Positions 5,145 to 25,772 of a DNA stretch of 64,000 nucleotides are shown one piece after another. A program made the translations under genes and the position numbers. Each line of letters begins with the position of its first letter. Positions within the stretch are counted from its first letter, which is position 1. The stretch is from Chloroflexota bacterium (GTDB lineage Bacteria; Chloroflexota; Anaerolineae; Anaerolineales; Villigracilaceae), in assembly GCA_013152325.1 (NCBI GenBank), contig JAADGN010000045.1, forward strand, positions 18,310-82,309. The letters are read 5' to 3'. The notes below the pieces were generated by a model that ran no database searches, was not told the DNA's origin, and was given only the letters and a program-made list of their open reading frames with translations.

Positions 5145-5163
5145 GATAACGCCTCGCGGAATT

Positions 5164-5191: not shown

Positions 5192-5204
5192 ATCTGGGGG
5201 GGAT

Positions 5205-5790: not shown

Positions 5791-8262
<2,472 letters not shown>

Positions 8263-8309
8263 GGGAATATCCTTTCGGGGCTTCTGGAACAGAGCCCCTT
8301 GCTCGAAAA

Positions 8310-9026: not shown

Positions 9027-9055
9027 AGTATATGCAGCGCACCCCTGAAACGCCA
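9027..9055 (-). promoter_or_regulatory. predicted promoter P1-minus (TGGCGT-17-TATACT) for the cop/ccdA unit
   Basis: On the minus strand: -35 TGGCGT (9055-9050), 17-nt spacer, -10 TATACT (9032-9027). It begins exactly 23 nt from the 7-2-7 repeat. Confidence 0.6.
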
Positions 9056-9078
9056 GCGCCATTTGCCGCATTGACAGG

Positions 9079-9094
9079 TAAGCAATTTTGCCTA
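9079..9094. promoter_or_regulatory. 7-2-7 inverted repeat, site 1 (TAAGCAA-TT-TTGCCTA), shared by divergent promoters
   Basis: It is part of a longer palindrome, CAGGTAAGCAATTTTGCCTACCTG (9075-9098). It lies 23 nt from a -35 hexamer on both strands. Confidence 0.7.
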
Positions 9095-9117
9095 CCTGGG
9101 AACGCGCTTAGTGGCCG

Positions 9118-9146
9118 ATGACATTCAGGATTCAGAAGAGTATGAT
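9118..9146 (+). promoter_or_regulatory. predicted promoter P1-plus (ATGACA-17-TATGAT)
   Basis: -35 ATGACA 9118-9123, 17-nt spacer, -10 TATGAT 9141-9146. This would leave a ~200-nt leader before the ATG at 9354. Confidence 0.55.
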
Positions 9147-9353
9147 GGTAAACAAGAGAAAGCAACACGGCGCAGCCCGGTCACTCCGCCAATGCGGCGA
9201 CCGGGCGTCGACGAAAAAGTCATTCCGTTCCGACCGTTCTGATTGTCCCCTCCGCCCCGCCGCCACAACTGATATCGATAAAGAAGGGGATCACCGACCC
9301 GGCTCTGCAGCGAAAGTCAGGCAGCTGAGCCATACCCGCGAAACGAGGTTTCC

Positions 9354-10754
9354 ATGCAACAGCACAACGAAGATGTACCCACGCTGGATTTTCTGGGCGC
9401 GACCGGAACCGTGACCGGCTCCCGCTTCCTGCTGCGGGTGAACGGCAAGCGGTACCTGGTGGATTGCGGTTTATTCCAGGGAGGCCGGAAAATCAAGGCC
9501 AAAAACTGGGAACCTTTTCCCGTCCCGCCGGAAGATATCGACGCCATCCTGCTCACCCATGCCCACATCGATCACACCGGCTATCTGCCGCGCCTGGTGC
9601 GCCAGGGCTATCGAGGGCCGGTGTACGCCACCGAGGCCACCTGCGCCCTGCTGGAGATCATGCTGCCCGATGCGGGATACCTGCAGGAACAGGACGCGGC
9701 CTACGCCAACAAGAAGGGCTACAGCCGCCACAAACCCGCGCTGCCGCTCTACACCGTGGCCGACGCGGAACAGGCGCTGGGCCTGCTGAACCCCCTGTCC
9801 TTCGGCCAGCCCCTGGCGCTGGACGACGTCACCGTCACCTGGCGTCCGGCGGGCCACATCCTCGGTTCGGCCATCCTGGAGGTCGAAGCGGGCGGTCAAA
9901 AGCTGGTCTTCTCCGGCGACCTGGGCCGCTACGACGGCGAGGTGATGCAGCCGCCGGCCCGCGTCGAGCAGGCCGATGTGCTGCTGGTCGAATCCACCTA
10001 CGGGAACCGGCTGCACGCCGACGAACCGATCCAGGACGTGCTGGCGGGGGTATTAAAGGAAGTCATCCGGCAGGGCGGCGTGTTGCTCGTCCCCGCTTTT
10101 ACGGTGGGGCGCACGCAGCAACTGCTGTACCACGTCCGCCAGTTGCAGGACCAGGGGCGCGTCCCGGCGGATCTGCCGGTCTTCATCGACAGCCCGATGG
10201 CCGTGGAGGCCAGTCACATCTACTGCCGCTTCGGGGACGACCACAACCTGGACATCAACCTGCTGATGGACGAGCAAACCTGTCCCCTGCGCTGCCGGGA
10301 GACGCATTTCGTGCGCGACGTGGCGGCATCCAAGGAGCTCAATGTCATGCCCGGCCCGGCCATGATCCTTTCCGCCAGCGGGATGTGCACCGGCGGACGC
10401 ATTCTGCACCACCTGAAATGGCGTCTGCCCGACCAACGCAACGTGGTGCTCTTCGTCGGCTACCAGGCGGAAGGGACGCGCGGCCGCCGGCTGTTGGAAG
10501 GCGCGGAACGGGTGCGCATCCACGGCGAGAGCGTCCCGGTACGCGCCCGCATCGTTCAGGCGCACGCGCTCTCCGGTCATGCCGACCGCGATGAGATCCT
10601 GCGCTGGCTCTCCGGCTTCAACCAGCCGCCGCGCCAGACTTTCATCGTGCACGGGGAGCCTTCATCCAGCGCTGCCCTGCAAGGACATATCCGCCGCAAA
10701 TTGGGCTGGGAGGCGGTCGTCCCGGAGCAGGGTGAACGCTTTCCTCTCGAATAA
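9354..10754 (+). CDS. MBL-fold beta-CASP family hydrolase (RNA-metabolising metallo-beta-lactamase)
   Basis: 466 aa with HAHIDHTGYLPRL (HxHxDH), a beta-CASP region, and the late motif ALSGHADRDEILRWL. Confidence 0.85.
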   Translation: MQQHNEDVPTLDFLGATGTVTGSRFLLRVNGKRYLVDCGLFQGGRKIKAKNWEPFPVPPEDIDAILLTHAHIDHTGYLPRLVRQGYRGPVYATEATCALLEIMLPDAGYLQEQDAAYANKKGYSRHKPALPLYTVADAEQALGLLNPLSFGQPLALDDVTVTWRPAGHILGSAILEVEAGGQKLVFSGDLGRYDGEVMQPPARVEQADVLLVESTYGNRLHADEPIQDVLAGVLKEVIRQGGVLLVPAFTVGRTQQLLYHVRQLQDQGRVPADLPVFIDSPMAVEASHIYCRFGDDHNLDINLLMDEQTCPLRCRETHFVRDVAASKELNVMPGPAMILSASGMCTGGRILHHLKWRLPDQRNVVLFVGYQAEGTRGRRLLEGAERVRIHGESVPVRARIVQAHALSGHADRDEILRWLSGFNQPPRQTFIVHGEPSSSAALQGHIRRKLGWEAVVPEQGERFPLE

Positions 10755-10821
10755 ACCCGGCGGCGTTGCCGGGCATCCCCCCACCGAAATTCCAACCACA
10801 TATCGCGAAAGGAGTTTTTCC

Positions 10822-11088
10822 ATGAACACGACCCTCAATTTCCGAGCCACAGTCTACACGCTTTTGATCGCCCTGATAAGCAGTTATGTGCTGTGCATCG
10901 CCGGCGACCTGCTCTTCGGCTGGACGATGTACCAGGCCTGGCTGCCATTGCTGCCGGGCTTCACCTGGCCGCTGACGACGGGCGGCTTCCTGGTCGGCCT
11001 GCTCTGGCTGGTCGGCTACAGCGTGTACGGCGCGGCCCTGCTGGTGCTGCCCTACAACTACTTCGTGCAGCGCCAGGCCGGGAAGTAG
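10822..11088 (+). CDS. small two/three-helix membrane protein, unknown function
   Basis: MNTTLNFRATVYTLLIALISSYVLCIAGDLLFGWTMYQAWLPLLPGFTWPL... AAAGGAG lies upstream of the ATG at 10822; the upstream part of the track ORF overlaps the previous gene. Confidence 0.6.
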   Translation: MNTTLNFRATVYTLLIALISSYVLCIAGDLLFGWTMYQAWLPLLPGFTWPLTTGGFLVGLLWLVGYSVYGAALLVLPYNYFVQRQAGK

Positions 11089-11173
11089 CTTTCTCCCCCT
11101 CCCATTCCCTTCCCGCCCATTTGCATCACGGGCGGGAAGGGAAACCCGCCAATTCGTTCGGCAAGGAGACGTT

Positions 11174-12502
11174 ATGTCCACCACCCCTGCTCACCCCATG
11201 TCAGATCGAGCCGCCACGTTGACGCGCGAGATACTGAGCCAACTCTTCGGACCTCCCGACCAGTGGAATTTCGCCGTGCGTTTCTGGAACGGCGCAACCC
11301 TGCCGGCAGGAAACGGTCCGGCGCCGTTCACCCTGGTGTTCCAGCACCCCGGCACGCTGCGGCGCATGTTCCGTCCGCCGCTCGAACTGGCGTTGGGCGA
11401 GGCCTTCATTTGCGGCGACTTCGACATCGAGGGAAGCGTCCACAGCGCGGTAACCCAGATGGACGCCCTCAGGCAGAACGCGTTTTCCGCCTCCGACCTG
11501 TTCGCGCTGGCGCGTCGCCTGATCGTGCTGCCGAAAGGCACAGGGCCGCGTTACCACGGCCGCGGGCCGGCGCGGCTGGCCGGGTCACGCCACTCCCGTC
11601 AGCGCGATCGCGCTGCCATCCACTACCATTACGACGTGGGCAACGATTTCTACGCCCTCTGGCTCGACCGCAACATGACCTACTCGTGCGCCTACTTCCC
11701 CACCGGTACGGAGAGCCTGGACAGCGCCCAGGAGCAGAAATACGAGCTGATCTGCAAAAAACTGCGCTTGCAGCCCGGCGAACGCCTGCTGGACATCGGC
11801 TGCGGCTGGGGCGGGCTGGTCATGTACGCGGCCCGGCATTACGGCGTGACCGCGCTGGGCGTGACGTTGAGCGAACAACAGGTCGCGTATGCCGCCGAAC
11901 GCATCGCCGCCTCCGGCCTGCAAGACCAGGCGCAAGTCGAACTGCGGGATTACCGCGACCTGCGCGACGCGTCTTTCGACAAAGTGGTCAGCGTGGGCAT
12001 GTTCGAGCACGTCGGAGAGAACCACCTGCCCGAATACTTCGGCCAGGTCTACCGCCTGCTCAAACCGGGCGGGCTGTTCCTCAATCACGGCATCTCGCGG
12101 CGGCCCCAAAAAGCGCCCCGGGGGTGGGCCGCCTTTGTCGAACGGTACATTCTGGGCGCGGGGACGTTCATCCAGCGCTACATTTTCCCGGATGGCGAAT
12201 TGGTGCCGGTCAGCGCGGTCAACCTGGCTGCGGAGTGGGCCGGTTTCGAAGTGCGGGACGTGGAAAACCTGCGCGAGCACTACGCGCTCACGCTGCGACA
12301 TTGGGTCGCTCGCCTGGAAGCCCATCACGACGAGGCGGTGCGCGTTGCCAGCGAAGCGACGTACCGCACCTGGCGGCTGTACATGGCGGCCTCGGCGCGC
12401 GGTTTCGACACGGGGCAGATCAACGTCAACCAGACCCTGCTGGCGAAACTGGCCGACGGACGAAGCGGCCTGCCCTGGTCAAGAGCTGATCTTCGCACGT
12501 AA
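11174..12502 (+). CDS. cfa: cyclopropane-fatty-acyl-phospholipid synthase family SAM methyltransferase
   Basis: HYDVGNDFYALWLDRNMTYSCAYF and LLDIGCGWGGL motifs, with the typical CFA-synthase C-terminus. AAGGAGA lies upstream. Confidence 0.85.
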   Translation: MSTTPAHPMSDRAATLTREILSQLFGPPDQWNFAVRFWNGATLPAGNGPAPFTLVFQHPGTLRRMFRPPLELALGEAFICGDFDIEGSVHSAVTQMDALRQNAFSASDLFALARRLIVLPKGTGPRYHGRGPARLAGSRHSRQRDRAAIHYHYDVGNDFYALWLDRNMTYSCAYFPTGTESLDSAQEQKYELICKKLRLQPGERLLDIGCGWGGLVMYAARHYGVTALGVTLSEQQVAYAAERIAASGLQDQAQVELRDYRDLRDASFDKVVSVGMFEHVGENHLPEYFGQVYRLLKPGGLFLNHGISRRPQKAPRGWAAFVERYILGAGTFIQRYIFPDGELVPVSAVNLAAEWAGFEVRDVENLREHYALTLRHWVARLEAHHDEAVRVASEATYRTWRLYMAASARGFDTGQINVNQTLLAKLADGRSGLPWSRADLRT

Positions 12503-12562
12503 ACACAACCCACTCGGCCCGCCGTCCGCCGCCGGGCCTCATCTCACTCCAGGAAAACTACG

Positions 12563-13633
12563 ATGTACGACGCGATCATTGTGGGCGCGAGTTTCGCCGG
12601 TCTGGCGATTGCCAATCAACTGCGCGGCCGCCGCGTCCTGCTGATCGACCGCAAGCCCATCGGCGCGGGCCAGACTTCGGCCTGCGGGACGATCTGGCAG
12701 GTACTGCGCTATTGGGACCTGGCCGAGGCCGTCCTGCAAGTCCACGACGGGCTGGTGCTGCACACCGCCCGGCGCGCCATCGAGTTCCCCTCGCCCTATC
12801 CCTGGTGCACTTTCGATTACCGCCGCCTGTGCGAAATCCTGTTCCAGCGCAGCGGGGCTGATTTCCTTCAGGCCGCGGTGCAAGGCGCGGACGGGAAGAC
12901 GGTGCACACCAATCGCGGGGATTTCAGCGCCCGCTGCCTGGTGGACGCTTCCGGCTGGCGGGCGGTATTGGCGACATCGCTCCTCCCCGATTTCGCGCCG
13001 GATGACATGAATTTTGGCATCGAGACCATCGTCTCCCCGCCGGAGGACGCGCCGGCCTCCACCATGCTGCATTTCTGGTACGCTCCAACACTCCTGCAGG
13101 ACGGCCTGGGATGGGTCTTCCCACGCGGCGAGACCGTCAGCATCGGCGTGGGGGCTTACGACGGCGCGACGCATTTGAGCGATACGCTGACGCGCTTTGC
13201 CGCGCGCCACGCGGTCTCGCCCGACGGTTTGCACGGCACCTATTTTCCGAAGGCGCTGCGTGCGCCAACCGCCGGGGACGTTTTCGTGGTCGGCGACGCG
13301 GCGGGAATGTGCCTCGCGTTGACCGGCGAGGGCATCCGCCCGGCGCTGTTCTTCGGCGAGGCCTGCGGCCGCATCGTCCGGCGGGTGCTGACCGGCGAGT
13401 TGACGCTGGACGCCGGGCTGAACGAGTACGAGGCGTTCGTCCGGGAGCGCCGCGTCCTCTTCCGTCTCTTCACCGCGCTCCAGTCCCTTCTGCCCCGCCT
13501 GCCCGTGTCCTGGATCAACGCGATAGCGCTCGTCGTGAGACACGACCGCCTGCGCCCGTGGGTGCTGGACAGGTACTGGGACCTGACCCGCACCTGGGAT
13601 GGAAAAACGATGGACCCTGACGGGAAAATGTGA
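12563..13633 (+). CDS. FAD-dependent oxidoreductase (geranylgeranyl-reductase-like)
   Basis: N-terminal dinucleotide fold MYDAIIVGASFAGLAIANQL and a later GDAAG motif (VVGDAAGMC). Confidence 0.75.
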   Translation: MYDAIIVGASFAGLAIANQLRGRRVLLIDRKPIGAGQTSACGTIWQVLRYWDLAEAVLQVHDGLVLHTARRAIEFPSPYPWCTFDYRRLCEILFQRSGADFLQAAVQGADGKTVHTNRGDFSARCLVDASGWRAVLATSLLPDFAPDDMNFGIETIVSPPEDAPASTMLHFWYAPTLLQDGLGWVFPRGETVSIGVGAYDGATHLSDTLTRFAARHAVSPDGLHGTYFPKALRAPTAGDVFVVGDAAGMCLALTGEGIRPALFFGEACGRIVRRVLTGELTLDAGLNEYEAFVRERRVLFRLFTALQSLLPRLPVSWINAIALVVRHDRLRPWVLDRYWDLTRTWDGKTMDPDGKM

Positions 13634-13665
13634 TCTGTGCTTCCCCCTCGACCAAGGCCTGGTGT

Positions 13666-14154
13666 TCAGGCCAACAAGCGCATGATGATGATGCCGTCTT
13701 CGACCTTGTACTCGTAACGATCCAGGGGACGCGGCGGAGGCCCCTTGGTGACGTTGCCCTCGATGTCATAGCGCCCGTCATGGCAGGGACAGATGTACTC
13801 CTGGGCGTCCGTGTGCCAAGCCACCCGGCAACTGAGATGCGTGCAGACATTGGAGAACACGACCAGGTCCGTCTCGGATTTGCGCCACACATAAACACCG
13901 TAGGAATTGGAGGTCTTCTCCCAACCGTTGACCCTCGCCCGCGTAAAGGTGAAGAGCGCGGGCGCGCCGACGGGATAGTCCGTCAACTTGCCCAACGGGA
14001 TCCAATCATCCAATTTCTGGGTTTTCACAGCAGGCCCAATCAGGTAGCCGATGATGGGCAGACCGACGACGGCCCCCATGATCGAACCCAGGAGCAGCGT
14101 GACGAATTTGACAAATTCCCTCCTGCTGAGACGTGAGCCGGATTTCGCCGTCAT
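13666..14154 (-). CDS. Rieske [2Fe-2S] protein with Tat-type signal anchor
   Basis: CTHLSCRV...CPCHDGRY Rieske boxes and N-terminal SRLSRREFVKFVTLLLG. The ATG at 14154 lies 2 nt after the upstream stop. Confidence 0.9.
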   Translation of the reverse strand: MTAKSGSRLSRREFVKFVTLLLGSIMGAVVGLPIIGYLIGPAVKTQKLDDWIPLGKLTDYPVGAPALFTFTRARVNGWEKTSNSYGVYVWRKSETDLVVFSNVCTHLSCRVAWHTDAQEYICPCHDGRYDIEGNVTKGPPPRPLDRYEYKVEDGIIIMRLLA

Positions 14155-14156
14155 TG

Positions 14157-14501
14157 CTAGCTCCTTAAAGTCGGAGAGAACGCGTCCTGGATGGTCTGCG
14201 TCAGCTCTTCGGCTTGTGGACATTCCTCTCCCCAACTCAAGTACGTGGCCCCGTCATGCCCATGCGCGACCAGCGAGACCGGCCGGTCGGCGGTGAGATA
14301 GATGAGCAGCACGATCATCTGGCAGTCGCATTCCGCCATCCCGTGATGGGGGCAGGTGCAGCCTGGGTGTACTGCCCGCGCACGTTGAAAGTCGAACGAG
14401 CGCACCACCTGGAAACCGGAGTCGGCCAAGTGCCGCGTCAAGCGCGCGATGACGGCTTCGCAGTCGTCGGAGACGTTGAACAGGGGAACGGATGGGGTCA
14501 T
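14157..14501 (-). CDS. uncharacterised Cys/His-rich small protein, paralog B (VVRSFDF...CTCPHHG-x5-CDCQMIVLLIY)
   Basis: 114 aa from the ATG at 14501. The predicted promoter at 14524-14552 excludes the longer track start at 14552. It aligns with 8611-8979. Confidence 0.75.
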   Translation of the reverse strand: MTPSVPLFNVSDDCEAVIARLTRHLADSGFQVVRSFDFQRARAVHPGCTCPHHGMAECDCQMIVLLIYLTADRPVSLVAHGHDGATYLSWGEECPQAEELTQTIQDAFSPTLRS

Positions 14502-14523
14502 GAAGGGTGTGCCTCTTGTCACG

Positions 14524-14552
14524 AGTATAAGGAGTCCGCCCGCAATCCCCAA
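14524..14552 (-). promoter_or_regulatory. predicted promoter P2-minus (TTGGGG-17-TATACT)
   Basis: On the minus strand: -35 at 14552-14547, 17-nt spacer, -10 at 14529-14524. It lies 23 nt from repeat site 2. Confidence 0.6.
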
Positions 14553-14575
14553 GCGCTATTTGACGCATCGCCGGG

Positions 14576-14591
14576 TAAGCCATTTTGCCTA
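14576..14591. promoter_or_regulatory. 7-2-7 inverted repeat, site 2 (TAAGCCA-TT-TTGCCTA)
   Basis: Read directly. The same half-sites and central TT occur at the other four sites. Confidence 0.7.
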
Positions 14592-14724
14592 TAACAGGGC
14601 AATGGCATAAGCAAAACCGCCTACAACAAAACAGGCCAAATAACCGGTGTCTCCTCCAGCAGATGCGGTTATCTTTTAAACAGCCCCTGACTGGAGGCCA
14701 AAACAATTAAGGAGAAAATATCTT

Positions 14725-15171
14725 ATGTCCAAAACCATTTCACCCAAATACCTGCTGATTGCAGCAGTCTTTGTCGTTTCCGCGTTGGCGCTGACCGCCT
14801 GTGGAAGCGCCGGCGCGAACACGCCTGATGTTGTGGAAGTCCAGGTCACGTTGACCGAATTCGCCTTCGAATCATCGATCACGACCTTCGAAGTGGGCGT
14901 ACCCTACCGTTTCGTGATCACCAACAAGGGCGCGATACCGCACGAGCTGATGATCATTCCAAAATTGGACAAGTCTGCCTCAGACGCTGACATGGAAGCG
15001 ATAGACGAACTGGCGCTGGCCGTTGTCGAAGAAGACGAGTTGCCTGCCGGAGCGACGGCTACGCTTGATTACACCTTCACCGAACCGGCCGATTCCGGCA
15101 AGTTGGAATTCGCCTGCTACCTGCCCGGGCACTATGAATCCGGCATGTACCTGCCGATCACGGTGCGCTAA
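14725..15171 (+). CDS. lipoprotein with type-1 (blue) copper cupredoxin domain
   Basis: Lipobox ALALTAC. Cupredoxin ligands are H (GAIPHEL) and C-x4-H-x4-M (FACYLPGHYESGM). AAGGAGAA lies upstream. Confidence 0.8.
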   Translation: MSKTISPKYLLIAAVFVVSALALTACGSAGANTPDVVEVQVTLTEFAFESSITTFEVGVPYRFVITNKGAIPHELMIIPKLDKSASDADMEAIDELALAVVEEDELPAGATATLDYTFTEPADSGKLEFACYLPGHYESGMYLPITVR

Positions 15172-15193
15172 CGCGTAAAAGTTGCTGCGCGCC

Positions 15194-15230
15194 AAACCGC
15201 CGGACGCCTGTGTTCAGTGTCCGGCGGTTT
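15194..15230 (+). terminator. rho-independent terminator after the cupredoxin lipoprotein gene
   Basis: AAACCGCCGGAC (15194-15205) / GTCCGGCGGTTT (15219-15230), followed by CATTATT. Confidence 0.65.
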
Positions 15231-15250
15231 CATTATTCGACGCCCCCCTG

Positions 15251-15266
15251 TAAGCCATTTTGCCTG
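15251..15266. promoter_or_regulatory. 7-2-7 inverted repeat, site 3 (TAAGCCA-TT-TTGCCTG)
   Basis: Read directly. It lies 23 nt upstream of ATGTCT. Confidence 0.7.
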
Positions 15267-15289
15267 CCCAAGGACGCGCAAAGTGAGGG

Positions 15290-15318
15290 ATGTCTTGCAG
15301 CCCAAAATTGTGTATGAT
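15290..15318 (+). promoter_or_regulatory. predicted promoter P3 (ATGTCT-17-TATGAT) for the ABC/FtsX operon
   Basis: -35 at 15290-15295, 17-nt spacer, -10 at 15313-15318. The ATG at 15342 follows AAAGGAG. Confidence 0.6.
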
Positions 15319-15341
15319 AGGAATGTGCAAAGGAGTATGCC

Positions 15342-16454: not shown

Positions 16455-16460
16455 TTTAAT

Positions 16461-16499
16461 TTGAAGTGACCGGCACTTTGAAAGTGCCGGTCACTTCAA
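16461..16499 (+). other. perfect 39-nt palindrome / long hairpin between the two permease genes
   Basis: TTGAAGTGACCGGCACTTT-G-AAAGTGCCGGTCACTTCAA. No U-tract follows; the next RBS (GGAGAA) comes immediately after. Confidence 0.8.
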
Positions 16500-16511
16500 G
16501 CTGGAGAACTC

Positions 16512-18349: not shown

Positions 18350-18818
18350 CGAGCACGTCCGCACCTGGTACGGCCTGGAGGCCGAGATCACCGTCACCGA
18401 GGCCAACCTCCACCGCGTGGCGCTCCCCTCCCTGAGCCTGCCCCATCCGGGGGTGGTCAACTGGTTCGCCCGTCAGGGGCTGGACGTGGACACCCGCCTG
18501 GCGCTGACCGCCCGCCACGAGTTCGGCCATTTGCAGACCCTGCCGGTGCCGCTCCTGCACCTGCTGCTCCTGCTCTGGCCGCGTCGCGGCCGACCGCGCC
18601 TGACCGGCCGGCTCCGCTTCTGGCTGATCCTGCTCACGCACCAGACCCTGTGGGAGGCAGCCGCCGAAACTTACGTCGTCGCCACCGACCGCCGCGCCGT
18701 GACCGCGCCGCGCCCGCGCTGGGCGCGCGGACTCTATGCCCTTTTCTGGGGGTGCATGACGGCCTTTTCAATTTTGGGTACAATACGCCTGCTTCAACGC
18801 GACCAATCCGCCCGGTGA
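18336..18818 (+). CDS. membrane protein with HExxH motif (ARHEFGHLQT), unknown function
   Basis: 160 aa. It overlaps the ATPase gene by 14 nt and has hydrophobic C-terminal helices. No named family recognised. Confidence 0.55.
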   Translation: MQQRDEHVRTWYGLEAEITVTEANLHRVALPSLSLPHPGVVNWFARQGLDVDTRLALTARHEFGHLQTLPVPLLHLLLLLWPRRGRPRLTGRLRFWLILLTHQTLWEAAAETYVVATDRRAVTAPRPRWARGLYALFWGCMTAFSILGTIRLLQRDQSAR

Positions 18819-18864
18819 GCGAACGTTAATCTGCCCACAAATGGGCACTTTTCAGGAGAGTGTC

Positions 18865-20004
18865 ATGCAAATTGAAACCCAAGTCATTCACGCCGGACGA
18901 TCCGCCGACCCCGCGACCGGGGCCGTCATGCCCCCCATCTACCAGACCTCCACCTACAAGCAGGACCGCGTCGGACAGCATCGCGGCTACGAGTACTCGC
19001 GCACCGGCAACCCCACCCGCGCCGCGCTGGAAGCCTGTCTGGCGGCGCTGGAAGGCAGCGAACACGGACTGGCTTTCGCCTCCGGGATGGCCGCGATCGA
19101 CGTCGTCTTGCGCCTGCTGTCGCCGGGCGACCACGTGCTGGCGGGCAACGACGTTTATGGCGGCACATTCCGGCTGTTCGACAGCGAGTTCCGTCGCTAC
19201 GGGCTGGAGTTCACGTATGTGGACACCAGCGACCCGGCCCAGGTGGAATCCGGGCTGCGCCCCAACACGCGCATGGTCTGGCTGGAGACGCCCACCAACC
19301 CTCTGCTCAACGTCAGCGACATCAGCGCCGTAGCCAGGATCGTCCACGGACGCAGTTCGGATACGCTCCTGGTGGTGGATAACACCTTTGCCACGCCCTA
19401 CCTGCAGCGTCCGCTCGAACTGGGGGCGGACATTGTCGTCCACTCCACCACAAAATATCTGGGCGGCCATTCCGACGTGGTGGGGGGCGCGGTCATTTCC
19501 CGCGACGCCGACATCCACACCCGCCTGGCGTTCCTGCAAAACGCGGCCGGAGCCGTGCCGGGGCCGCTGGACTGCTTCCTGGTCCTGCGGGGCGTCCAGA
19601 CGCTGCCGGTGCGCATGGATCGTCATGCCGAGAACGCGGCCGCCATCGCGGACTTCCTGTCCCGTCATCCCAAAGTGGCAGTCACCCTGTACCCGTTCCA
19701 CCCCTCGCATCCCCAGGCAGCGACAGCGCGCCGGCAAATGCGCAACGGCGGCGGCATGGTCTCCTTCGTGCTCAAAAACGGCGCGGAGGCAGCCCGGCAC
19801 GTCGCCGAGAACACGTCACTTTTCACGCTTGCCGAATCGTTGGGCGGGGTCGAATCGTTGATCGAAGTACCCGCCGTCATGACCCATGCCTCCACCGCCG
19901 ATTCTCCCCTGGCCGTGGATCCGGGTCTGGTGCGGCTCTCCGTCGGCCTGGAACACGCAGATGACCTGCTCTCGGATTTGGAGCACGCGTTATCCGGCGT
20001 GTAG
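18865..20004 (+). CDS. cystathionine gamma-lyase/gamma-synthase family PLP enzyme
   Basis: MQIETQVIHAG... with the PLP-lysine region STTKYLGGHSD. GGAGAG lies upstream of the ATG at 18865. Confidence 0.85.
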   Translation: MQIETQVIHAGRSADPATGAVMPPIYQTSTYKQDRVGQHRGYEYSRTGNPTRAALEACLAALEGSEHGLAFASGMAAIDVVLRLLSPGDHVLAGNDVYGGTFRLFDSEFRRYGLEFTYVDTSDPAQVESGLRPNTRMVWLETPTNPLLNVSDISAVARIVHGRSSDTLLVVDNTFATPYLQRPLELGADIVVHSTTKYLGGHSDVVGGAVISRDADIHTRLAFLQNAAGAVPGPLDCFLVLRGVQTLPVRMDRHAENAAAIADFLSRHPKVAVTLYPFHPSHPQAATARRQMRNGGGMVSFVLKNGAEAARHVAENTSLFTLAESLGGVESLIEVPAVMTHASTADSPLAVDPGLVRLSVGLEHADDLLSDLEHALSGV

Positions 20005-20039
20005 GCGGGCGCTCATCACGTCTGCGCTCCGCGCACAGG

Positions 20040-21458
20040 TTAAATTTCCCGGGCAATAAAATCGAGCACGTCTATCTTGGTCAAAATACCGATGGGGCGC
20101 TCTCCTTCGGTCACCAAAGCCACCGGCTCCTCGACGAAGGTCGGCAGCACGTCTTCCAGGGGCGTATAGACCGGAAAGGTGGGCGGAGCGGGTTGGACGA
20201 TGGACGCGACGGTCTCGTCGGACGAATGGGTATGCCCGGCTTCGACGATGTGCTTGAGCAGGTCCACCTCCGTGACCAGCCCGGCCAGCGCGCCATCGGC
20301 GCGCAACACAGGAACCTGGGAGATATCGTGTTCCTTCAGCAGGGCGATCACGTCCGTCATGCAATCGTCCAGGGCGACCGAGATCAATCCCTGGAAGGAT
20401 TTCTCCGCCAGCACGTCGCCGAGGCTGACTTCACCCCACGCAGCTTCCAGGTATCCGTTTTCACGCATCCATTTGTCGTCGAAGATCTTGGAGAGGTAGC
20501 GGGAACCCGAATCGGGCAGGATGACGACGACCAGCCGGTCGGACGGCAGGTTTTGAGCGTAGCGCACGGCGGCAGCTACGGCCGAGCCCGAAGAGCCGCC
20601 GCAAAAAACGGATTCTTCCCTGACCAGCCGCCGAGTCCACAAAAAGGACTCCTTGTCGGTGACTCGAATGACCTCGTCGATCACCGACAGATCCAGCGTC
20701 GAAGGCAAAAAGTCTTCGCCGATGCCTTCCACCTTGTACGAGGTGGCTTCCACGTCATCCGGGACGCCGCCGTGCTGCCAGGTTTCCAGCAGGATGGATC
20801 CGGTTGAATCCACGCCCACGATGCGCACATCCGGGTTCTGCTCCTTGAGATAGCGCCCCACGCCGGTGATGGTCCCGCCAGTGCCCATGCCCACTACCAG
20901 GTCGGTGACTTTGCCCTGGGTCTGCTCCCAGATTTCGGGGCCGGTGGTCGCATAATGGCTGCGGGGGTTCTCAGGGTTGTGATACTGGTTGGCCAGGATG
21001 GCGTTTGGCGTTTCGGCCACGATGCGGTTTGCCACGCTGTAGTAGGAGCGGGGGTCTTCAGGGGCGACAGCCGTCGGCGTGATGACCACCCTTGCGCCAT
21101 AGGCCCGCAGGAGCTGGATTTTTTCCTGGCTCATCTTGTCTGGCATCACGAATACGGATTTGTACCCTTTTATGGCGCAGACAATGGCCAATCCGACGCC
21201 GGTGTTGCCGGACGTGGACTCCACCACGGTGCCGCCGGGTTTAAGCCGTCCGCTCTTCTCGGCTTCGGCGATCATGGTCAACGCGATGCGGTCTTTCACC
21301 GACCCTCCCGGATTGAAGAACTCCACCTTGGCATATAAGGGGCAGGGCAAACCGCGTCCGACGCGATTCAGGCGTACCAACGGCGTTTTGCCGATCGTTT
21401 GCAGGATATTGTCATAAACGTGCAGGGAAGCGGATACTGGAAGTGAGTTTGAAGTCAT
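20040..21458 (-). CDS. cystathionine beta-synthase (PALP domain plus C-terminal CBS pair)
   Basis: GGSVKDRIAL and SGNTG motifs in the N-terminal domain. Two CBS-type repeats occupy the last ~130 aa. Confidence 0.85.
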   Translation of the reverse strand: MTSNSLPVSASLHVYDNILQTIGKTPLVRLNRVGRGLPCPLYAKVEFFNPGGSVKDRIALTMIAEAEKSGRLKPGGTVVESTSGNTGVGLAIVCAIKGYKSVFVMPDKMSQEKIQLLRAYGARVVITPTAVAPEDPRSYYSVANRIVAETPNAILANQYHNPENPRSHYATTGPEIWEQTQGKVTDLVVGMGTGGTITGVGRYLKEQNPDVRIVGVDSTGSILLETWQHGGVPDDVEATSYKVEGIGEDFLPSTLDLSVIDEVIRVTDKESFLWTRRLVREESVFCGGSSGSAVAAAVRYAQNLPSDRLVVVILPDSGSRYLSKIFDDKWMRENGYLEAAWGEVSLGDVLAEKSFQGLISVALDDCMTDVIALLKEHDISQVPVLRADGALAGLVTEVDLLKHIVEAGHTHSSDETVASIVQPAPPTFPVYTPLEDVLPTFVEEPVALVTEGERPIGILTKIDVLDFIAREI

Positions 21459-21515
21459 TGTACGATACTCCTCTATGATTGTTTTGGTTTGGTTTGAGAT
21501 GACTGAATTTCGGTT

Positions 21516-21549
21516 AAACGAAACCGTCCACCGGGATCCCGGTGGACGG
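21516..21549 (-). terminator. terminator-like hairpin inside the 5' leader of the cystathionine beta-synthase gene (possible attenuator/riboswitch expression platform)
   Basis: On the minus strand, CCGTCCACCGGGATCCCGGTGGACGG is followed by TTTCGTTT. It lies about 58 nt upstream of the ATG at 21458, with no upstream same-strand gene to terminate. Confidence 0.5.
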
Positions 21550-21780
21550 AAGAAGGGCAGAAGTCAGAAAGACTAACAACGTTTGCCTGTAAACACCCTG
21601 GCACATTTTCCCAAACCGGAATCACAAACTCCACGCAGGGGGAGCTGCGCACAGGTACAGAAACAGGGCTGGGAAATAGTAATCATTGCAAACAATACTA
21701 CCACCAATTGCCACATCTGGGAATAAGTATTTTTACCTATGGGGGAGGAATTATGGACAAATGTCATGTGACGAACAACA

Positions 21781-21796
21781 TAGGCAATTTGGCCTG
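21781..21796. promoter_or_regulatory. 7-2-7 inverted repeat, site 4 (TAGGCAA-TT-TGGCCTG)
   Basis: Read directly. It lies 23 nt upstream of ATGACA. Confidence 0.7.
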
Positions 21797-21819
21797 TTCG
21801 ACACCCCGCGAGATGGCGC

Positions 21820-21848
21820 ATGACAAGCCCAGGCCTTTCGGCTATGCT
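21820..21848 (+). promoter_or_regulatory. predicted promoter P4 (ATGACA-17-TATGCT) for the PCYCGC/CuA/Fe-S operon
   Basis: -35 at 21820-21825, -10 at 21843-21848. About 45 nt here are nearly identical to promoter P5 (CCCCGCGAGATGGCGCATGACA...TTTCGGCTATGCT). Confidence 0.65.
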
Positions 21849-21882
21849 TTGTTCAGAATTGAACAATCGGAGACTTGGCACC

Positions 21883-22314
21883 ATGCAAAAACCCCTGACT
21901 TTTCCCCTGTTCCTGCTCGCCGTTCTGTTGTCCGGCGTCTTGTTGGCCGGATGCAGCGGCACGCAAGCCTACGCGCTGGCTCCCCTGGACGGGATGCCTT
22001 TGGATGTACAGAACGCCCCCGCGCCAGTTCGGGAGGCTTACCAATTCGCGGTCGCCAACCCGGAAGTGTTGAAAGACATCCCCTGCTACTGCGGCTGCGG
22101 CGGGATGGGCCACACCTCCAACTACTCATGCTACGTGGCCGATGAGAACGCTGACGGCAGCCTGGTCTTCGAGGGGCACGCGCTGGGATGCTCCATCTGC
22201 GTGGACATCACCCAGGACGCCATGCGCATGATCGACCAAGGCAAGACCGTTCCCGAAATCCGCGCCTACGTGGACCAGACCTACAGCCGCTTCGGGCCGT
22301 CGAATATGCCGTGA
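21883..22314 (+). CDS. PCYCGC-motif lipoprotein
   Basis: MQKPLTFPLFLLAVLLSGVLLAGCSG lipobox. DIPCYCGCGGMGHTSNYSCY and HALGCSICVDI motifs. The start is set by the promoter position; the track start 21820 lies inside the -35. Confidence 0.8.
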   Translation: MQKPLTFPLFLLAVLLSGVLLAGCSGTQAYALAPLDGMPLDVQNAPAPVREAYQFAVANPEVLKDIPCYCGCGGMGHTSNYSCYVADENADGSLVFEGHALGCSICVDITQDAMRMIDQGKTVPEIRAYVDQTYSRFGPSNMP

Positions 22315-22320
22315 TCGGGC

Positions 22321-22785
22321 ATGATGAAAAGCTCTCCCGCCCTTCTTCGCAATGCCGTTTTCCTGGCGGCCGCACTGTTGGTCGCTTTCGCTCCGCTGCC
22401 CCTGCCCCAAACACCCCCGGCAGAGCGCACTTTTCGAATAGATGCCACCCAGTTCGCCTTCGCACCCGCCGTGCTGACAGTCAATCCCGGCGACCGCGTG
22501 ACGATTGAATTGACCTCGCTGGATGTCGTCCACGGCCTGTACCTGGACGGCTACGACCTGCAAATCAGCGCCGACCCCGGACAGACTGCCACAATGACCT
22601 TTGTGGCCGACCGCGCCGGAAGTTTCCGCTTTCGCTGCGCGGCGACCTGCGGCGACCTGCATCCCTTCATGATCGGCAAACTGCACGTCGGGCCGAACAC
22701 CCTGTTGTGGCGCAGCATCGGGCTGGCCCTCCTGGCAATGTTCGCCGCGGTCATGCTTGGGATGCCTCGACTGCGCAAGGCATAA
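22321..22785 (+). CDS. cupredoxin-domain protein with complete CuA-type ligand set and C-terminal TM helix
   Basis: VVHG-x34-CAATCGDLHPFM, i.e. H...C-x3-C-x3-H-x2-M as in COX subunit II / NosZ CuA. It has an N-terminal signal and a C-terminal helix WRSIGLALLAMFAAVMLG. Confidence 0.8.
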   Translation: MMKSSPALLRNAVFLAAALLVAFAPLPLPQTPPAERTFRIDATQFAFAPAVLTVNPGDRVTIELTSLDVVHGLYLDGYDLQISADPGQTATMTFVADRAGSFRFRCAATCGDLHPFMIGKLHVGPNTLLWRSIGLALLAMFAAVMLGMPRLRKA

Positions 22786-22794
22786 AACGCCATC

Positions 22795-24156
22795 ATGCCA
22801 AAATACGACCTGCTCCGCATCCCTCTGCTTCGCAAAACGCTTGAAAGCCGCTGGCCGCAACTGATCCTGCGGGCGGCGGCTTTGGGCGGATTCGCGATTG
22901 CCATCCTGGCCGGGCTGCTGGGGACGCGGGTGGGCAACCACAATTTTGCCATTGTGGTCGTCTGGATCGCCTGGTGGGCCGCGCTGATGCTGTTGGCGGT
23001 CCCCCTCCTGGGACGCGGCTGGTGCGCGATCTGCCCCATCCCGATGCCCGGCGAATGGCTGCAAAACGGGGCCGCACTCGGCCCCGTCCAGGACGGGAGC
23101 AGGCACGGACGGAGTCTGAAGCGTTTCCCAAAATCCTTCCGCAATATCTGGATGCAGAACGTCGCCTTCACCCTGCTGGCGCTGTTCAGCGCGGTCATCC
23201 TGACCCGCCCCAGCGTCACCGGCTGGATACTGTTGGGAATGCTGCTGGTCGCCGTCGGCGCCAGTCTGGTTTATGAGCGCCGGACGTTCTGCCGTTACAT
23301 CTGCCCGGTGGGCGGATTTATCGGTCTGTATTCGCAGTTGGCCCCGCTCGAACTGCGCGTGGTGGACACAAAGATCTGCGCCGCGCACAAGGAGAAATCC
23401 TGCTACCGCGGTAATGCGGAAGGCTACGGCTGCCCATGGGACGTTTTCCCCGGCGGGCTGGCGGTGAACACAAACTGCGGCCTGTGCATGGAATGCCTGC
23501 GCACCTGCGAGTACGACAACATCGCCCTCAACCTGCGCGCCCCCGGCGCCGACCTGGATCCGCCGCACGGCCTGAAACTGGACGAAGCCTACAAGGCCTT
23601 TATCATGCTGGGCAGCGCGCTGGTGTACTCGGCAGTCATGCTGGGCCCGTGGGGCGCGCTGAAGACCGCGGCCTACTCGATAGGGTCGCCAGCCTGGTGG
23701 GGCTACGCGCTGGGCTTGCTGGTCCTCATCTGGGGGTTGCTGCCCGGCCTGTTCTACCTGACCACGCGCGCCGCACAGGCGCTCGCTCCCGTCCGCCTGC
23801 CGCCGCGCAAGCTGTTCGCGCGCTACGCCGCGGCGCTGATACCGCTTGGGCTGACCGCCTGGATCGCCTTCAGCATCTCGTTCGTCTTCGCCAACATTTC
23901 GTATCTCTGGCCGGTGCTCTCCGACCCGTTTGGATGGGGCTGGGATCTCTTCGGCACGGCCGGGGCGGGTTGGACGCCTTATCTCTCCCTGGCCGTCCCC
24001 ATGCTGCAAGTCGTTGTGCTGCTGGGCGGGCTGTTTTGGTCGGGGCGCACGGCGGCGAAAATCGCAGCGGAACAAGGCGCTCGCCGCCATGTCTGGCCGG
24101 TGACAGGCTTCAACACTCTCGTGACGATAGGTTTGCTATGGCTACTGGTCGGATGA
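22795..24156 (+). CDS. polytopic 4Fe-4S-binding membrane protein (NapH/NosH/CcoG-like)
   Basis: GWCAICPIP, FCRYICPVGGF and NCGLCMECLRTCEYDNI Cys clusters are interspersed with about 8 hydrophobic helices. Confidence 0.8.
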   Translation: MPKYDLLRIPLLRKTLESRWPQLILRAAALGGFAIAILAGLLGTRVGNHNFAIVVVWIAWWAALMLLAVPLLGRGWCAICPIPMPGEWLQNGAALGPVQDGSRHGRSLKRFPKSFRNIWMQNVAFTLLALFSAVILTRPSVTGWILLGMLLVAVGASLVYERRTFCRYICPVGGFIGLYSQLAPLELRVVDTKICAAHKEKSCYRGNAEGYGCPWDVFPGGLAVNTNCGLCMECLRTCEYDNIALNLRAPGADLDPPHGLKLDEAYKAFIMLGSALVYSAVMLGPWGALKTAAYSIGSPAWWGYALGLLVLIWGLLPGLFYLTTRAAQALAPVRLPPRKLFARYAAALIPLGLTAWIAFSISFVFANISYLWPVLSDPFGWGWDLFGTAGAGWTPYLSLAVPMLQVVVLLGGLFWSGRTAAKIAAEQGARRHVWPVTGFNTLVTIGLLWLLVG

Positions 24157-25175
24157 AAAAGGAATGGCTGGCACGTCTGCTGGTGCTGGCCCTGGTCGTC
24201 GGTTTTTCCGCCGCAGCGCTGTACGCGCGCTGGGCCGACCGAACGCTCGAAGTCCACGCCGCCATGCCCGAAAAAGGCGGCTGGCTGCCCAACACGCTCA
24301 CGGCCCGGGCGGACGAACCGCTGACGCTGCGGCTGATCTCCGACGACGTGGTGCACGGCTTCGCCATCGGGCAAAGCGACCAGCAGCCGTCGGTGGATAT
24401 CCTGCCGGGCAAACCCGTCGAAATCACGCTGCTCTTTGACAAGCCGGGCACCTACACGTACTACTGCACGCGCTGGTGCGGACCCAACCACTGGCGGATG
24501 CGCGGCACGATCGAAGTGGAGGGAGACGATTCCTCGCTGGCGAACGACCCTAGCGGCCCCGTCGCGCCGCCCCTGTACCTGATGCTGGGCATCGACCTGG
24601 ACGCCCCGCACGATGTCCAGGTTGACGTGACCCGACAGCCCTCCGCCCGGCGCGGCGCGGCCCTGGACACAAACCTGCCCGCCGAGATGCTCTCCCGCGA
24701 GTACGTCCGCGCCCACAGTCCCTACGAGGTCTGGCAAACCCTGCGGGAAACGCCCGCCGCCAGCCCATTGAGCGATGCGGATCTCTGGGATCTGGTCGCC
24801 CGGCTCTGGGAACGCAGCACCACGCCGGATGCGCTGCAAACCGGCGCGCAGCTCTACGCCCAGAACTGCGCGACCTGCCACGGCACGACGGGCGCCGGGG
24901 ACGGCGTCTTCGCGGCCGCGCTGGCAGGCGAGACGTCTGCAACGCCAATTTCGCCCGGCCTCGGCCACGAGACTGTCGCGCCGACCGATTTCAGCGACCC
25001 GGCCCACATGCTGGGCGCCAGTCCCGCCCTGCTGCACGGCAAGATCATCCGCGGCGGCATGGGGACGGGCATGCCCTCCTGGGGCCTGATCTTCACCGAC
25101 GAACAAACCTGGGCGCTCACCGATTATCTATGGACTTTCACTTTTCAATTTCAATTCAAGGAGACAACACCATGA
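24153..25175 (+). CDS. membrane-anchored CuA-type cupredoxin fused to a c-type cytochrome domain (COX subunit II-like, orphan)
   Basis: MKKEWLARLLVLALVVGFSAAALY anchor. VVHG-x36-CTRWCGPNHWRM matches the CuA pattern. The C-terminal domain has CATCHG plus MPSWG. The ATG at 24153 overlaps the upstream TGA (ATGA). Confidence 0.8.
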   Translation: MKKEWLARLLVLALVVGFSAAALYARWADRTLEVHAAMPEKGGWLPNTLTARADEPLTLRLISDDVVHGFAIGQSDQQPSVDILPGKPVEITLLFDKPGTYTYYCTRWCGPNHWRMRGTIEVEGDDSSLANDPSGPVAPPLYLMLGIDLDAPHDVQVDVTRQPSARRGAALDTNLPAEMLSREYVRAHSPYEVWQTLRETPAASPLSDADLWDLVARLWERSTTPDALQTGAQLYAQNCATCHGTTGAGDGVFAAALAGETSATPISPGLGHETVAPTDFSDPAHMLGASPALLHGKIIRGGMGTGMPSWGLIFTDEQTWALTDYLWTFTFQFQFKETTP

Positions 25176-25687
25176 GTAAAAGAAAGAGCAAACGCAGACC
25201 AAGCCGGCGCAGGAAAAAGAAAACATTGCCCATGCCACTGATCCTGCTGCTTGGCGGGGTGCTGTTGGCAGCCGCGGGCTTTGCCCTGGCCGCCCAGAAT
25301 TCCAACAGCGGCGTCACCGCCGCCGACCCGTCATTGGTCACCGTTCAGGGCCAGCCCAGCCTGAAAGTGGATCAGGAGTTGATCGACTACGGCGACGTCA
25401 AGCTGAACACCAACCTGACTTTCACCCTGACCCTGACCAACGTCGGCGACAAAACGCTGCGCTTCAGCGAGACGCCCTACATCGAAGTTCGGGAGGGCTG
25501 CTGACCGCCTGCCCTGACCATCGGTTCGATGGTCCTCAAGCCAGGCCAAAGCACCACCCTTGAATCCAGCGTGTTCATGATGCACGAGGGCATGGAGGGG
25601 CCGCACGATTTTCGCGTCCACATCCCCAGCAACGACCCGGATGCGGCGGACAAAACCGTCACAGTGCTCTCCAACTGGGTACGCTGA
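25172..25687 (+). CDS. DUF1573-like exported protein with in-frame TGA at 25502-25504 (candidate selenocysteine; otherwise truncated at 25504)
   Basis: The ATG overlaps the upstream TGA (ATGA). The product reads ...LIDYGDVKLNTNLTFTLTLTNVGDKTLRFSETPYIEVREGC-TGA-PPALTIGSMVLKPGQSTTLESSVFMMHEGMEGPHDFRVHIPSNDPDAADKTVTVLSNWVR-TGATAA. The frame stays open for 61 more codons, and the domain only looks complete with readthrough. Confidence 0.55.
25516..25534 (+). promoter_or_regulatory. SECIS-like hairpin 11 nt downstream of the in-frame TGA
   Basis: GACCATCG-GTT-CGATGGTC is a perfect 8-bp stem. The apical loop contains GU and starts 20 nt after the TGA. Confidence 0.45.
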
Positions 25688-25704
25688 TAACACGCAAACG
25701 GGCA

Positions 25705-25720
25705 TAGGCGGTTTGGCCTA
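25705..25720. promoter_or_regulatory. 7-2-7 inverted repeat, site 5 (TAGGCGG-TT-TGGCCTA)
   Basis: Read directly. It is embedded in GCATAGGC-GGTTTG-GCCTATGC. Confidence 0.7.
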
Positions 25721-25743
25721 TGCCCGTCCCCGCGAGATAGCGC

Positions 25744-25772
25744 ATGACACGCGCCGGTTTTTCGGCTATGCT
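25744..25772 (+). promoter_or_regulatory. predicted promoter P5 (ATGACA-17-TATGCT)
   Basis: -35 at 25744-25749, -10 at 25767-25772, 23 nt from site 5. The ATG at 25796 follows AGGAGA. Confidence 0.65.

Follow-up and report, generated by a model that had tools for sequence, protein, structure and literature searches.

We analysed a 64,000-nt stretch of the Chloroflexota contig JAADGN010000045.1 (the whole stretch is referred to below as the window), in which a short palindromic element recurs upstream of promoters. There are six such palindromes and they serve seven promoters at an invariant spacing; the sites and their geometry recur across a comparison set of about 100 Chloroflexota loci, all of them metagenome-assembled, where they are linked to the gene for a two-component response regulator. 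We conclude that the sites are probably the operators of the NarL/FixJ-family regulator encoded at 424-1098, which has a LuxR-type helix-turn-helix (HTH) and is paired with a HisKA_3 kinase, and that this regulator would activate, rather than repress, a regulon concerned with copper handling, with copper as the presumptive signal.

Sites, promoter geometry and conservation

An initial annotation of the window had listed five 16-bp inverted repeats and six promoters, with a 23-nt gap between each repeat and a weak -35-like hexamer and a 17-nt spacer between that hexamer and the -10. When the window sequence was checked, all five 16-mers were present at the coordinates quoted for them, and the exact pattern used to describe them occurred 5 times against 0.02 expected from shuffles. 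As that pattern had been drawn up post hoc, tests that do not depend on it were also made. A looser pattern, TARGC-N6-GCYTA, recovered a sixth site at 14608-14623 (TAAGCAAAACCGCCTA), which is 32 bp from site 2 and precedes the plus-strand cupredoxin gene 14725-15171 with the same geometry as at the other sites; the total in the window is six palindromes serving seven promoters. With both strands of all sites aligned, TAT[GAC][ACT]T was found exactly 46 nt past the palindrome in 7/7 promoters, and the 23 + 6 + 17 spacing likewise held exactly at all seven. The opposite orientations of sites 2, 2b, 3, 4 and 5 showed no comparable promoter layout. All six sites are intergenic, as had been proposed, in a region (424-27524) of which only about 11% is non-coding and about 89% is coding. 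The layout also bore out that P4 and P5 are near-identical over some 45 nt. The leaders of P2-, P3 and P5 measure 22-23 nt from the -10 to the ATG, Shine-Dalgarno included, which leaves no room for an alternative promoter, so that their -10 boxes are the only plausible ones.

A position weight matrix (PWM) was trained on 73 promoters from other genomes, with the window left out. This matrix ranked the seven window promoters at the top, with scores of 39-59, the next match scoring 20 and the maximum in the shuffled window being <=0. The sites and promoters are as follows, each with its PWM score; L001 is a syntenic contig with 74% protein identity and L002 a contig from the same species as the window.

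9079..9094: site 1, distal palindrome TAAGCAATTTTGCCTA, common to the divergent P1+ and P1-; conserved in L001 and L002
9027..9069, minus strand: P1-, proximal site GCGGCAAATGGCGC at 9056-9069, -35-like TGGCGT at 9050-9055, -10 TATACT at 9027-9032; PWM 56.8; target, the operon of paralog A, CsoR-like protein, CopA and further genes
9104..9146, plus strand: P1+, proximal site GCGCTTAGTGGCCG at 9104-9117, -35-like ATGACA at 9118-9123, -10 TATGAT at 9141-9146; PWM 47.1; target, beta-CASP / CMAS / FAD oxidoreductase
14576..14591: site 2, distal palindrome TAAGCCATTTTGCCTA
14524..14566, minus strand: P2-, proximal site GCGTCAAATAGCGC at 14553-14566, -35-like TTGGGG at 14547-14552, -10 TATACT at 14524-14529; PWM 59.0; target, paralog B / Rieske protein
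14608..14623: site 2b, distal palindrome TAAGCAAAACCGCCTA, absent from the initial list
14633..14675, plus strand: P2b+, proximal site AGGCCAAATAACCG at 14633-14646, -35-like GTGTCT at 14647-14652, -10 TATCTT at 14670-14675; PWM 41.2; target, cupredoxin gene 14725-15171
15251..15318, plus strand: site 3 and P3+, palindrome 15251-15266, proximal site GCGCAAAGTGAGGG at 15276-15289, -35-like ATGTCT, -10 TATGAT at 15313-15318; PWM 39.1; target, FtsX-FtsX-ABC operon (Pfam)
21781..21848, plus strand: site 4 and P4+, palindrome 21781-21796, proximal site CCGCGAGATGGCGC at 21806-21819, -35-like ATGACA, -10 TATGCT at 21843-21848; PWM 48.5; target, PCYCGC / cupredoxin / Fer4 membrane protein / cupredoxin-cytochrome c
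25705..25772, plus strand: site 5 and P5+, palindrome 25705-25720, proximal site CCGCGAGATAGCGC at 25730-25743, -35-like ATGACA, -10 TATGCT at 25767-25772; PWM 43.2; target, YkuD-like (L,D-transpeptidase-like) protein / methyltransferase

Related loci were first found by way of paralogs A and B, the two small Cys/His proteins whose genes come first in the P1- and P2- operons. When one genome of each species was scanned, 15 further loci came to light, nearly all from Anaerolineales or from Chloroflexota metagenome-assembled genomes, and most of these have the palindrome immediately before the gene for the paralog homologue and, about 46 nt past the palindrome, a -10. Where a strict palindrome match was missing, the left arm was degenerate and the right arm, the GCGC block and the spacing were retained. 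Both palindromes, their bidirectional use and the spacing are all kept in L001, where the proximal site, -35-like hexamer and -10 of P1- are unchanged and those of P2- are identical. In a three-way alignment of the P1 intergenic region the spacers diverge, and what stays invariant is the palindrome, the proximal block on either side of it together with its -35-like hexamer, and the -10 of the paralog A side; the -10 on the beta-CASP side differs, being TATGAT in the window and TAGCAT in L001.

The whole architecture was also searched for as a composite pattern, consisting of the palindrome (<=3 mismatches, GC cores fixed), 19 nt, GCGC (<=1 mismatch), 6 nt, 17 nt and TANNNT, and this gave 22 matches in 267 kb against about 0.3 expected from Markov shuffles. 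In addition, every exact palindrome in the window and the other loci was read on both strands with nothing required downstream (n = 136 oriented palindromes). TANNNT stood at offset 46 in 60/136 of these, any other offset reaching 8 at most, and GCGC began at offset 19 in 40/136, any other offset reaching 6 at most. The recovery by the PWM and the fixed offsets elsewhere confirm the observation of the sites, which is no artefact of pattern choice. Conservation of motif and spacing in orthologous loci was thus looked for and found, both in L001 and across the wider set of loci, and this comparative evidence supports the earlier suggestion that the sites have a cis-regulatory role, at a constant spacing from sigma-A-like -10 boxes.

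The anatomy of the element was derived from a logo of 80 non-redundant promoters. All positions relative to the start assume that transcription begins 7 nt after the -10, and the centre of the palindrome at -66.5 rests on that assumption. The distal site (-75 to -58) reads aTAGGCAAAATTGCCTAt, with an A/T-rich centre and with GC invariant at positions 4-5 and 12-13 of the 16-mer. A proximal site, cGCcAaATgGCGC, is found 24 bp downstream at about -49 to -36, adjoining the -35, and has the GC-N6-GC core in common with the distal one; when the logo is shifted by 24 bp it matches the inner ten distal positions, GC(A/C)AAAT(T/G)GC, with C and GCT in place of the distal TAG and CTA and without the TA arms. 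Judged from these alignments, the element is better read as a palindrome of 16-18 bp with a GC-N6-GC core than as a pair of NarL-like heptamers, and the 23-nt gap is no mere spacer and holds a second, apparently weaker site. This accounts for the block A[TG][AG]GCGC that the initial annotation had noticed abutting the -35, together with a GCG-containing block; both were confirmed and are here widened to a proximal site in the 80-promoter logo.

The -35 is reduced to T 0.62, T 0.54 and G 0.59 at positions -35 to -33, such that TTG alone survives at about 55-62%. The -10 (-12 to -7) reads TAtaaT with a T at 0.79, the T-A...T of the box having been imposed during promoter selection. A barely conserved -35 together with a strong -10 is the signature of activator dependence, in keeping with what had been suggested from the weak -35 elements of the window. 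It is also consistent with poor -35 elements that a generic sigma-70 scan detected only P1+, P4 and P5 and missed the other promoters.

These features suggest a mechanism in which a dimer of the phosphorylated regulator would first fill the high-affinity 16-18 bp palindrome aTAGGCAAAATTGCCTAt, centred near -66.5, and the weaker site cGCcAaATgGCGC, centred near -42.5, would be taken by another dimer or by the remaining half of a tetramer. From this class-II-like position the regulator would recruit sigma-A RNA polymerase to promoters with a good -10 and a poor -35. Since the distal site is palindromic, site 1 can serve two divergent promoters, and the sites at 14576 and 14608, 32 bp apart, would do the same divergent job. 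In most relatives the regulator and kinase genes lie within a motif-driven operon, an arrangement that would give positive autoregulation. The mechanism is itself conventional; the regulon and the operator are most likely previously undescribed, as far as literature searches show.

A degenerate eighth site, TAGGTAAAAATACTTA, was noted on the minus strand at 21724-21739, 57 bp from site 4 (PWM 20.1 against <=0 in shuffles). It faces the cystathionine-beta-synthase-like gene 20040-21458 with no -10 at the canonical offset, which would suit a relic or a weak site.

The regulator at 424-1098 and its partner kinase

The regulator gene had been named earlier as the likely source of the binding protein. 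It and the kinase gene lie at the left end of the window.

424..1098, minus strand: response regulator, REC domain (PF00072, 3.3e-30) and GerE LuxR-type HTH (PF00196, 7.5e-18)
1..427, minus strand: N-terminal part of the partner histidine kinase; the start overlaps the regulator stop codon and the gene continues beyond the window

The closest solved structures to the regulator are VraR (E = 1.7e-36), ChrA, DevR and NarL, which align over the full length. It scored 151 bits against the cut-off of 250 for the NCBIfam NarL equivalog, and with the named NCBIfam equivalogs every score, for the regulator and the kinase alike, was under the cut-off. The recognition helix reads TVQGHL in 79/80 regulator orthologues; its Gln takes the place of a Lys that contacts DNA in VraR, LiaR and other solved relatives, a substitution that would fit a distinct DNA specificity. 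A full-length kinase orthologue, at 4735-6507 of locus L010, consists of HisKA_3 (PF07730) and HATPase_c (PF02518). Alignment of 30 kinase orthologues showed an extracytoplasmic domain of about 250 amino acids between two transmembrane segments, with His46, Gln47, Met50 and Arg51 conserved just after the first of these segments.

Regulator orthologues of 68-80% identity, which is above that of the neighbouring genes, were found within the cluster in six of the loci selected through the paralogs. An independent set was made up of 80 metagenomic loci (455 kb) chosen solely by regulator orthology, at 71-85% identity. It can be seen that the palindrome is strongly enriched in these, with 50 exact copies against about 0.8 expected, or some 60-fold over chance. 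When only loci of >=8 kb were considered, 17/19 had the palindrome within one mismatch and 15/19 the full composite architecture. In most of the longer loci a motif promoter precedes the regulator gene and shares its strand, within a recurrent order in which a motif is followed by genes for PCYCGC protein, cupredoxin, Fer4 membrane protein, cupredoxin/cytochrome c and a small protein, and a further motif by those for the paralog, a CsoR-like, DUF3105 or 334-amino-acid protein in some cases, DUF2085, in some cases cytochrome c, and then regulator and kinase. A cluster gene stands immediately upstream of the regulator gene in 42/47 loci, the kinase gene comes next after it in 44/60, and the motif lies directly before the regulator gene at two promoters.

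All open reading frames from the approximately 100 loci were clustered, and this gave a conserved core of regulator (86 loci), kinase (63), DUF2085 (47) and paralog (42). Within the cluster no protein is better conserved than the regulator (68-85% identity), and apart from the CsoR-like protein (8 loci) no other conserved transcription-factor family was found in the clustering. We conclude from this linkage, seen in the 6 paralog-selected and the 80 regulator-selected loci, that the regulator encoded at 424-1098 is most likely the binder and is the best-supported candidate, which lends support to its earlier nomination.

A gap, 1099-1310, parts the window's regulator gene from the cytochrome c gene. 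With an A/T-rich TAAAAT standing 6 nt ahead of its ATG, the regulator gene may have a promoter of its own, possibly a leaderless one. In L010 a multicopper oxidase gene (8003-9547) and an OmpR-type response regulator gene (9603-10364) were seen just downstream of the NarL-type regulator-kinase pair, and a second, classical copper two-component system may coexist there.

Target genes, the Cys/His paralogs and the copper theme

Pfam confirmed the gene content that had been assigned to the promoter-driven units. The presumed P1- operon runs from paralog A to the cytochrome c gene; its genes are syntenic in L001, and no internal motif site was found by PWM across 1311-8621.

8611..8979, minus strand: paralog A, DUF302-like Cys/His protein, first gene of the P1- operon; CPHH and CDCQ invariant
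1311..8621, minus strand: remainder of the presumed P1- operon after paralog A, comprising the following genes and small proteins
8310-8621, minus strand: CsoR-like protein (PF02583)
5791-8262, minus strand: CopA, with two HMA domains
4140-5144, minus strand: 334-amino-acid protein
3350-4351, minus strand: DsbD_TM
2724-3329, minus strand: DUF3105
1795-2553, minus strand: DUF2085
1311-1802, minus strand: cytochrome c
14157..14501, minus strand: paralog B, same family as paralog A, first gene of the P2- operon

Targets in the window that lie beyond this operon include a MacB-type ABC transporter, a Fer4 membrane protein resembling NapH/CcoG, a PCYCGC protein and three proteins of the cupredoxin type. 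The genes that come first behind the motif in relatives include those for multicopper oxidases, a CopZ-like HMA protein, a P-type ATPase rich in His and a DUF411-like protein, and also for a membrane protein with a CCAHH motif, a rhodanese and a thioredoxin-like protein. Among promoters of other loci, 8 have a cupredoxin homologue as the gene that follows the motif first and 9 lead into the PCYCGC operon, and the paralog gene is the commonest first gene of all (19/78 promoters). On this gene content, copper handling, with envelope and thiol functions linked to it, appears to be the most economical theme for the regulon.

Paralogs A and B have the invariant motifs DCE, SFD, CPHH and CDCQ in common. 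A single-sequence search with paralog B gave 4 relatives only, owing to the word index of the search, and a profile search gave more than 1,159 family members in public data, mostly of about 125 amino acids and all unnamed. The family invariants, in paralog B numbering, are F36, D37, A41, C50, H52, H53, C58, C60, Q61, L66 and Y68. Neither Pfam nor NCBIfam gave a match to the family, and a profile search against PDB sequences was likewise empty. An AlphaFold model with a predicted local distance difference test (pLDDT) score of 86.7 has a DUF302-like alpha/beta fold; its best Foldseek matches, the DUF302 structures 1q9u and 1j3m, are weak (TM about 0.5, E = 3e-3), and no HTH, ribbon-helix-helix or other DNA-binding fold was found in the model.

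The CsoR-family gene (8310-8621) was present in 3 paralog-selected loci and in 8 of the approximately 100 loci overall. In its product the first Cys, C33, is present and, by eye, Gln and Ser replace the His and Cys of Cu(I)-sensing CsoR; judging by these residues it is probably not a canonical copper sensor.

The four-gene core, that is the DUF302-like Cys/His protein, DUF2085, the NarL-type regulator with Gln for Lys and the kinase with the large extracytoplasmic domain, might represent an undescribed Chloroflexota copper-sensing pathway, in which the small, cytoplasmic CPHH...CDCQ protein would bind Cu(I) as an intracellular co-sensor or feedback modulator in the manner of LiaF for LiaSR, and not as a mere chaperone. 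We put this forward as a speculative proposal of which we are ourselves somewhat doubtful.

A 14-bp tandem duplication, AAAAGTGCCACAAA x2, was seen at 8985-9015 in the P1- leader of paralog A. It was rejected as an operator because it is missing from the same-species contig L002 and from L001, and by this comparison it looks like a strain-level event. The P1+ leader to the beta-CASP gene (9147-9353) is about 207 nt long compared with about 42 nt in L001, some 165 nt extra, and it matched no Rfam family.

Alternative explanations and known systems

Several observations weigh against operators bound and activated by this regulator for the sake of copper. The motif departs from the NarL heptamer and from the LiaR consensus alike. 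The distal and proximal sites are 24 bp apart, which is about 2.3 helical turns, and so do not lie on the same face of the DNA; this implies DNA bending or a flexible tetramer, and simple cooperative binding of two dimers fits less well. Some genes of the regulon have no evident tie to copper, namely a beta-CASP nuclease, a cyclopropane-fatty-acid synthase, an L,D-transpeptidase-like protein and the MacB-type ABC transporter, and in the 30 aligned kinase orthologues the extracytoplasmic domain was without a conserved Cys or a recognisable metal site. Given these genes and this sensor, the signal could be copper-induced envelope or thiol stress and not copper itself. Linkage, moreover, is not the same as the identity of a binder, and the binding protein may be a regulator encoded elsewhere in these genomes. 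Synteny is the sole connection between regulator and motif; four paralog-selected loci (L003, L004, L006 and L009) have the motif or a variant of it with no regulator orthologue within 10 kb; and, by PWM, no motif lies upstream of the window's own regulator gene, which a 212-nt gap (1099-1310) separates from the P1- operon.

The last three points would also be expected if the sites were real operators of some other transcription factor whose gene lies outside the sequenced loci, with the NarL-type regulator just a member or a neighbour of the regulon. We consider this rather unlikely, as no other transcription-factor family is conserved in the loci except the CsoR-like one, and the regulator is the most conserved protein of a cluster in which it usually lies inside a motif-driven operon; in addition, HTH proteins of the GerE type, as dimers or tetramers, typically occupy an even-length palindrome together with a secondary site (PMC4482077). 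If instead the regulator binds and represses, or forms a loop, RNA polymerase would be occluded or trapped until a signal releases the protein. The proximal site abuts or overlaps the -35 position, where repressors also bind, and the -35-like hexamers are kept in the close relative L001 (ATGACA; TGGCGT/TGGCAC) and so may work alone. Across the 80 promoters, however, the -35 is barely conserved and the -10 strong, the high-affinity site lies upstream near -66 and not over the core promoter, and LiaR and VraR, which among characterised proteins stand nearest to this regulator, are activators whose sites share the layout of consensus plus secondary site (PMC4482077); repression seems to us unlikely.

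That the binder is the CsoR-like protein or one of the small Cys/His paralogs is very unlikely. The former belongs to a metal-sensing repressor family and is encoded within the P1- operon, and the place of the paralog as commonest first gene after the motif is typical of autoregulated regulators, but neither protein accounts for operators centred near -66. The CsoR-like protein, which by eye is without the His and Cys of the Cu(I) site, was rejected as too rare in the motif loci (8), and the paralog was rejected on its DUF302-like predicted fold and the empty PDB search. We find it barely credible that the palindromes are RNA hairpins or terminators, or copies of a small repeated or mobile element. 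Site 5 does form part of a perfect hairpin with an 11-bp stem (25699-25726; -22.7 kcal/mol, z = -5.4), site 1 folds at -11.8 kcal/mol, and the near-identity of P4 and P5 would suit a repeat; yet 3/6 sites fold no better than shuffled sequence (-1.9 to -5.3 kcal/mol), no U tracts follow the sites and Rfam gave no match. Conservation across genomes is confined to the 18 bp of the palindrome, which stands at a fixed distance from a -10, upstream of promoters, in unrelated loci.

Two further assignments were rejected on the architecture. A LysR-type operator has a similar layout (about -65 plus about -35), but an even-length palindrome cannot hold the T-N11-A box, and no LysR-type gene was found in the window or conserved across the loci. 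A sigma-54 or extracytoplasmic function (ECF) sigma promoter would need a different GG/GC spacing, and the -10 seen here has the classical form TAtaaT.

Among known systems, the predicted operators of the NarL-type regulator most resemble those of LiaR, a VraR homologue. LiaR recognises a 16-bp consensus, T-N4-C-N4-G-N4-A, and an adjoining secondary site of little sequence similarity; the activated protein is a tetramer whose four HTH motifs would span about 42 nt, with a footprint of 42-46 nt and with DNA bending, VraR contacts sigma, and both LiaR and VraR are activators (PMC4482077). Here too there is a REC and GerE regulator with a HisKA_3 kinase, often in an autoregulated operon, and a 16-bp dyad followed by a weakly similar secondary site, the two together spanning 40 nt (-75 to -36), compared with the 42-46 nt of the LiaR footprint, and kept in 80 promoters. 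The system would thus operate as LiaR and VraR do, yet it falls outside their family. The consensus differs, being T-N3-C-N6-G-N3-A (TAGGC-N6-GCCTA) with C and G at positions 5 and 12 of the 16-mer. The residue corresponding to LiaR K177 and NarL K188 is Gln in 79/80 orthologues, whereas NarL and DosR, like LiaR, have Lys at this base-contacting position (PMC4482077). The kinase has the extracytoplasmic domain of about 250 amino acids in place of an intramembrane sensor, there is no LiaF and the conserved upstream membrane protein is DUF2085; the regulon points to copper instead of lipid II and the envelope, and the lineage is Chloroflexota instead of Firmicutes.

The initial annotation had read the 7-2-7 layout as the geometry of NarL. 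The layout itself holds, with two inverted 7-bp arms, 2 bp between them and a regulator of the same superfamily, but the half-site does not fit. The NarL heptamer is TACYYMT; the arm TA(G/A)GCAA agrees with it at 4/7 positions, TAGGCAA being off at positions 3, 4 and 7. The regulon is, besides, unrelated to nitrate respiration.

CusRS, CopRS, PcoRS and DsbRS likewise pair a membrane kinase with a response regulator for copper-efflux, multicopper-oxidase and Dsb-type genes, and are often encoded beside their targets and autoregulated. Their regulators are OmpR/PhoB winged-helix proteins that act on direct repeats, in contrast to the GerE HTH and inverted repeat found here; DsbR, for example, binds the direct repeat TTAA-N7-TTAA (10.1101/2020.08.17.255257). 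With the CsoR, CueR and CopY systems the regulon shares the kind of target gene (copA, copZ), and a CsoR-family gene is encoded in the window. CsoR and CopY are repressors on core-promoter operators and CueR binds within the promoter spacer, whereas the main site here is near -66, 46 nt upstream of the -10, and a CsoR-like gene accompanies the motif in only 8 of about 100 loci.

Literature searches, in which subscription journals were partly covered so that a prior description is possible, turned up neither this motif nor a copper system of the NarL class, no copper regulon in Chloroflexi or Anaerolineae and no role for these gene families in copper regulation, and, with the same coverage, nothing relevant on PCYCGC or on DUF2085 with copper. 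If the predicted binding is true, this would, according to these searches, be the first two-component system of the NarL/LuxR class to be associated with copper; those known so far belong to the OmpR class. Uncultured Anaerolineae-type Chloroflexota, which are abundant in sludge, sediments and soils, gain an operator, a promoter architecture and a candidate regulator, and about a dozen gene families of unknown function, including PCYCGC, DUF2085, DUF3105, the DUF302-like Cys/His proteins and the CCAHH membrane protein, would be tied to copper handling. The PWM can be used directly for regulon annotation in metagenomes.

Two minor features of the window may be added. The hairpin at site 5 follows closely on the final gene of the P4 operon, with no U tract after it, and might additionally act at the transcript end. 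Three tandem tRNA genes (50568-50826) are followed by two very large open reading frames, 50831-53989 (1,052 amino acids) and 54244-60249 (2,001 amino acids).

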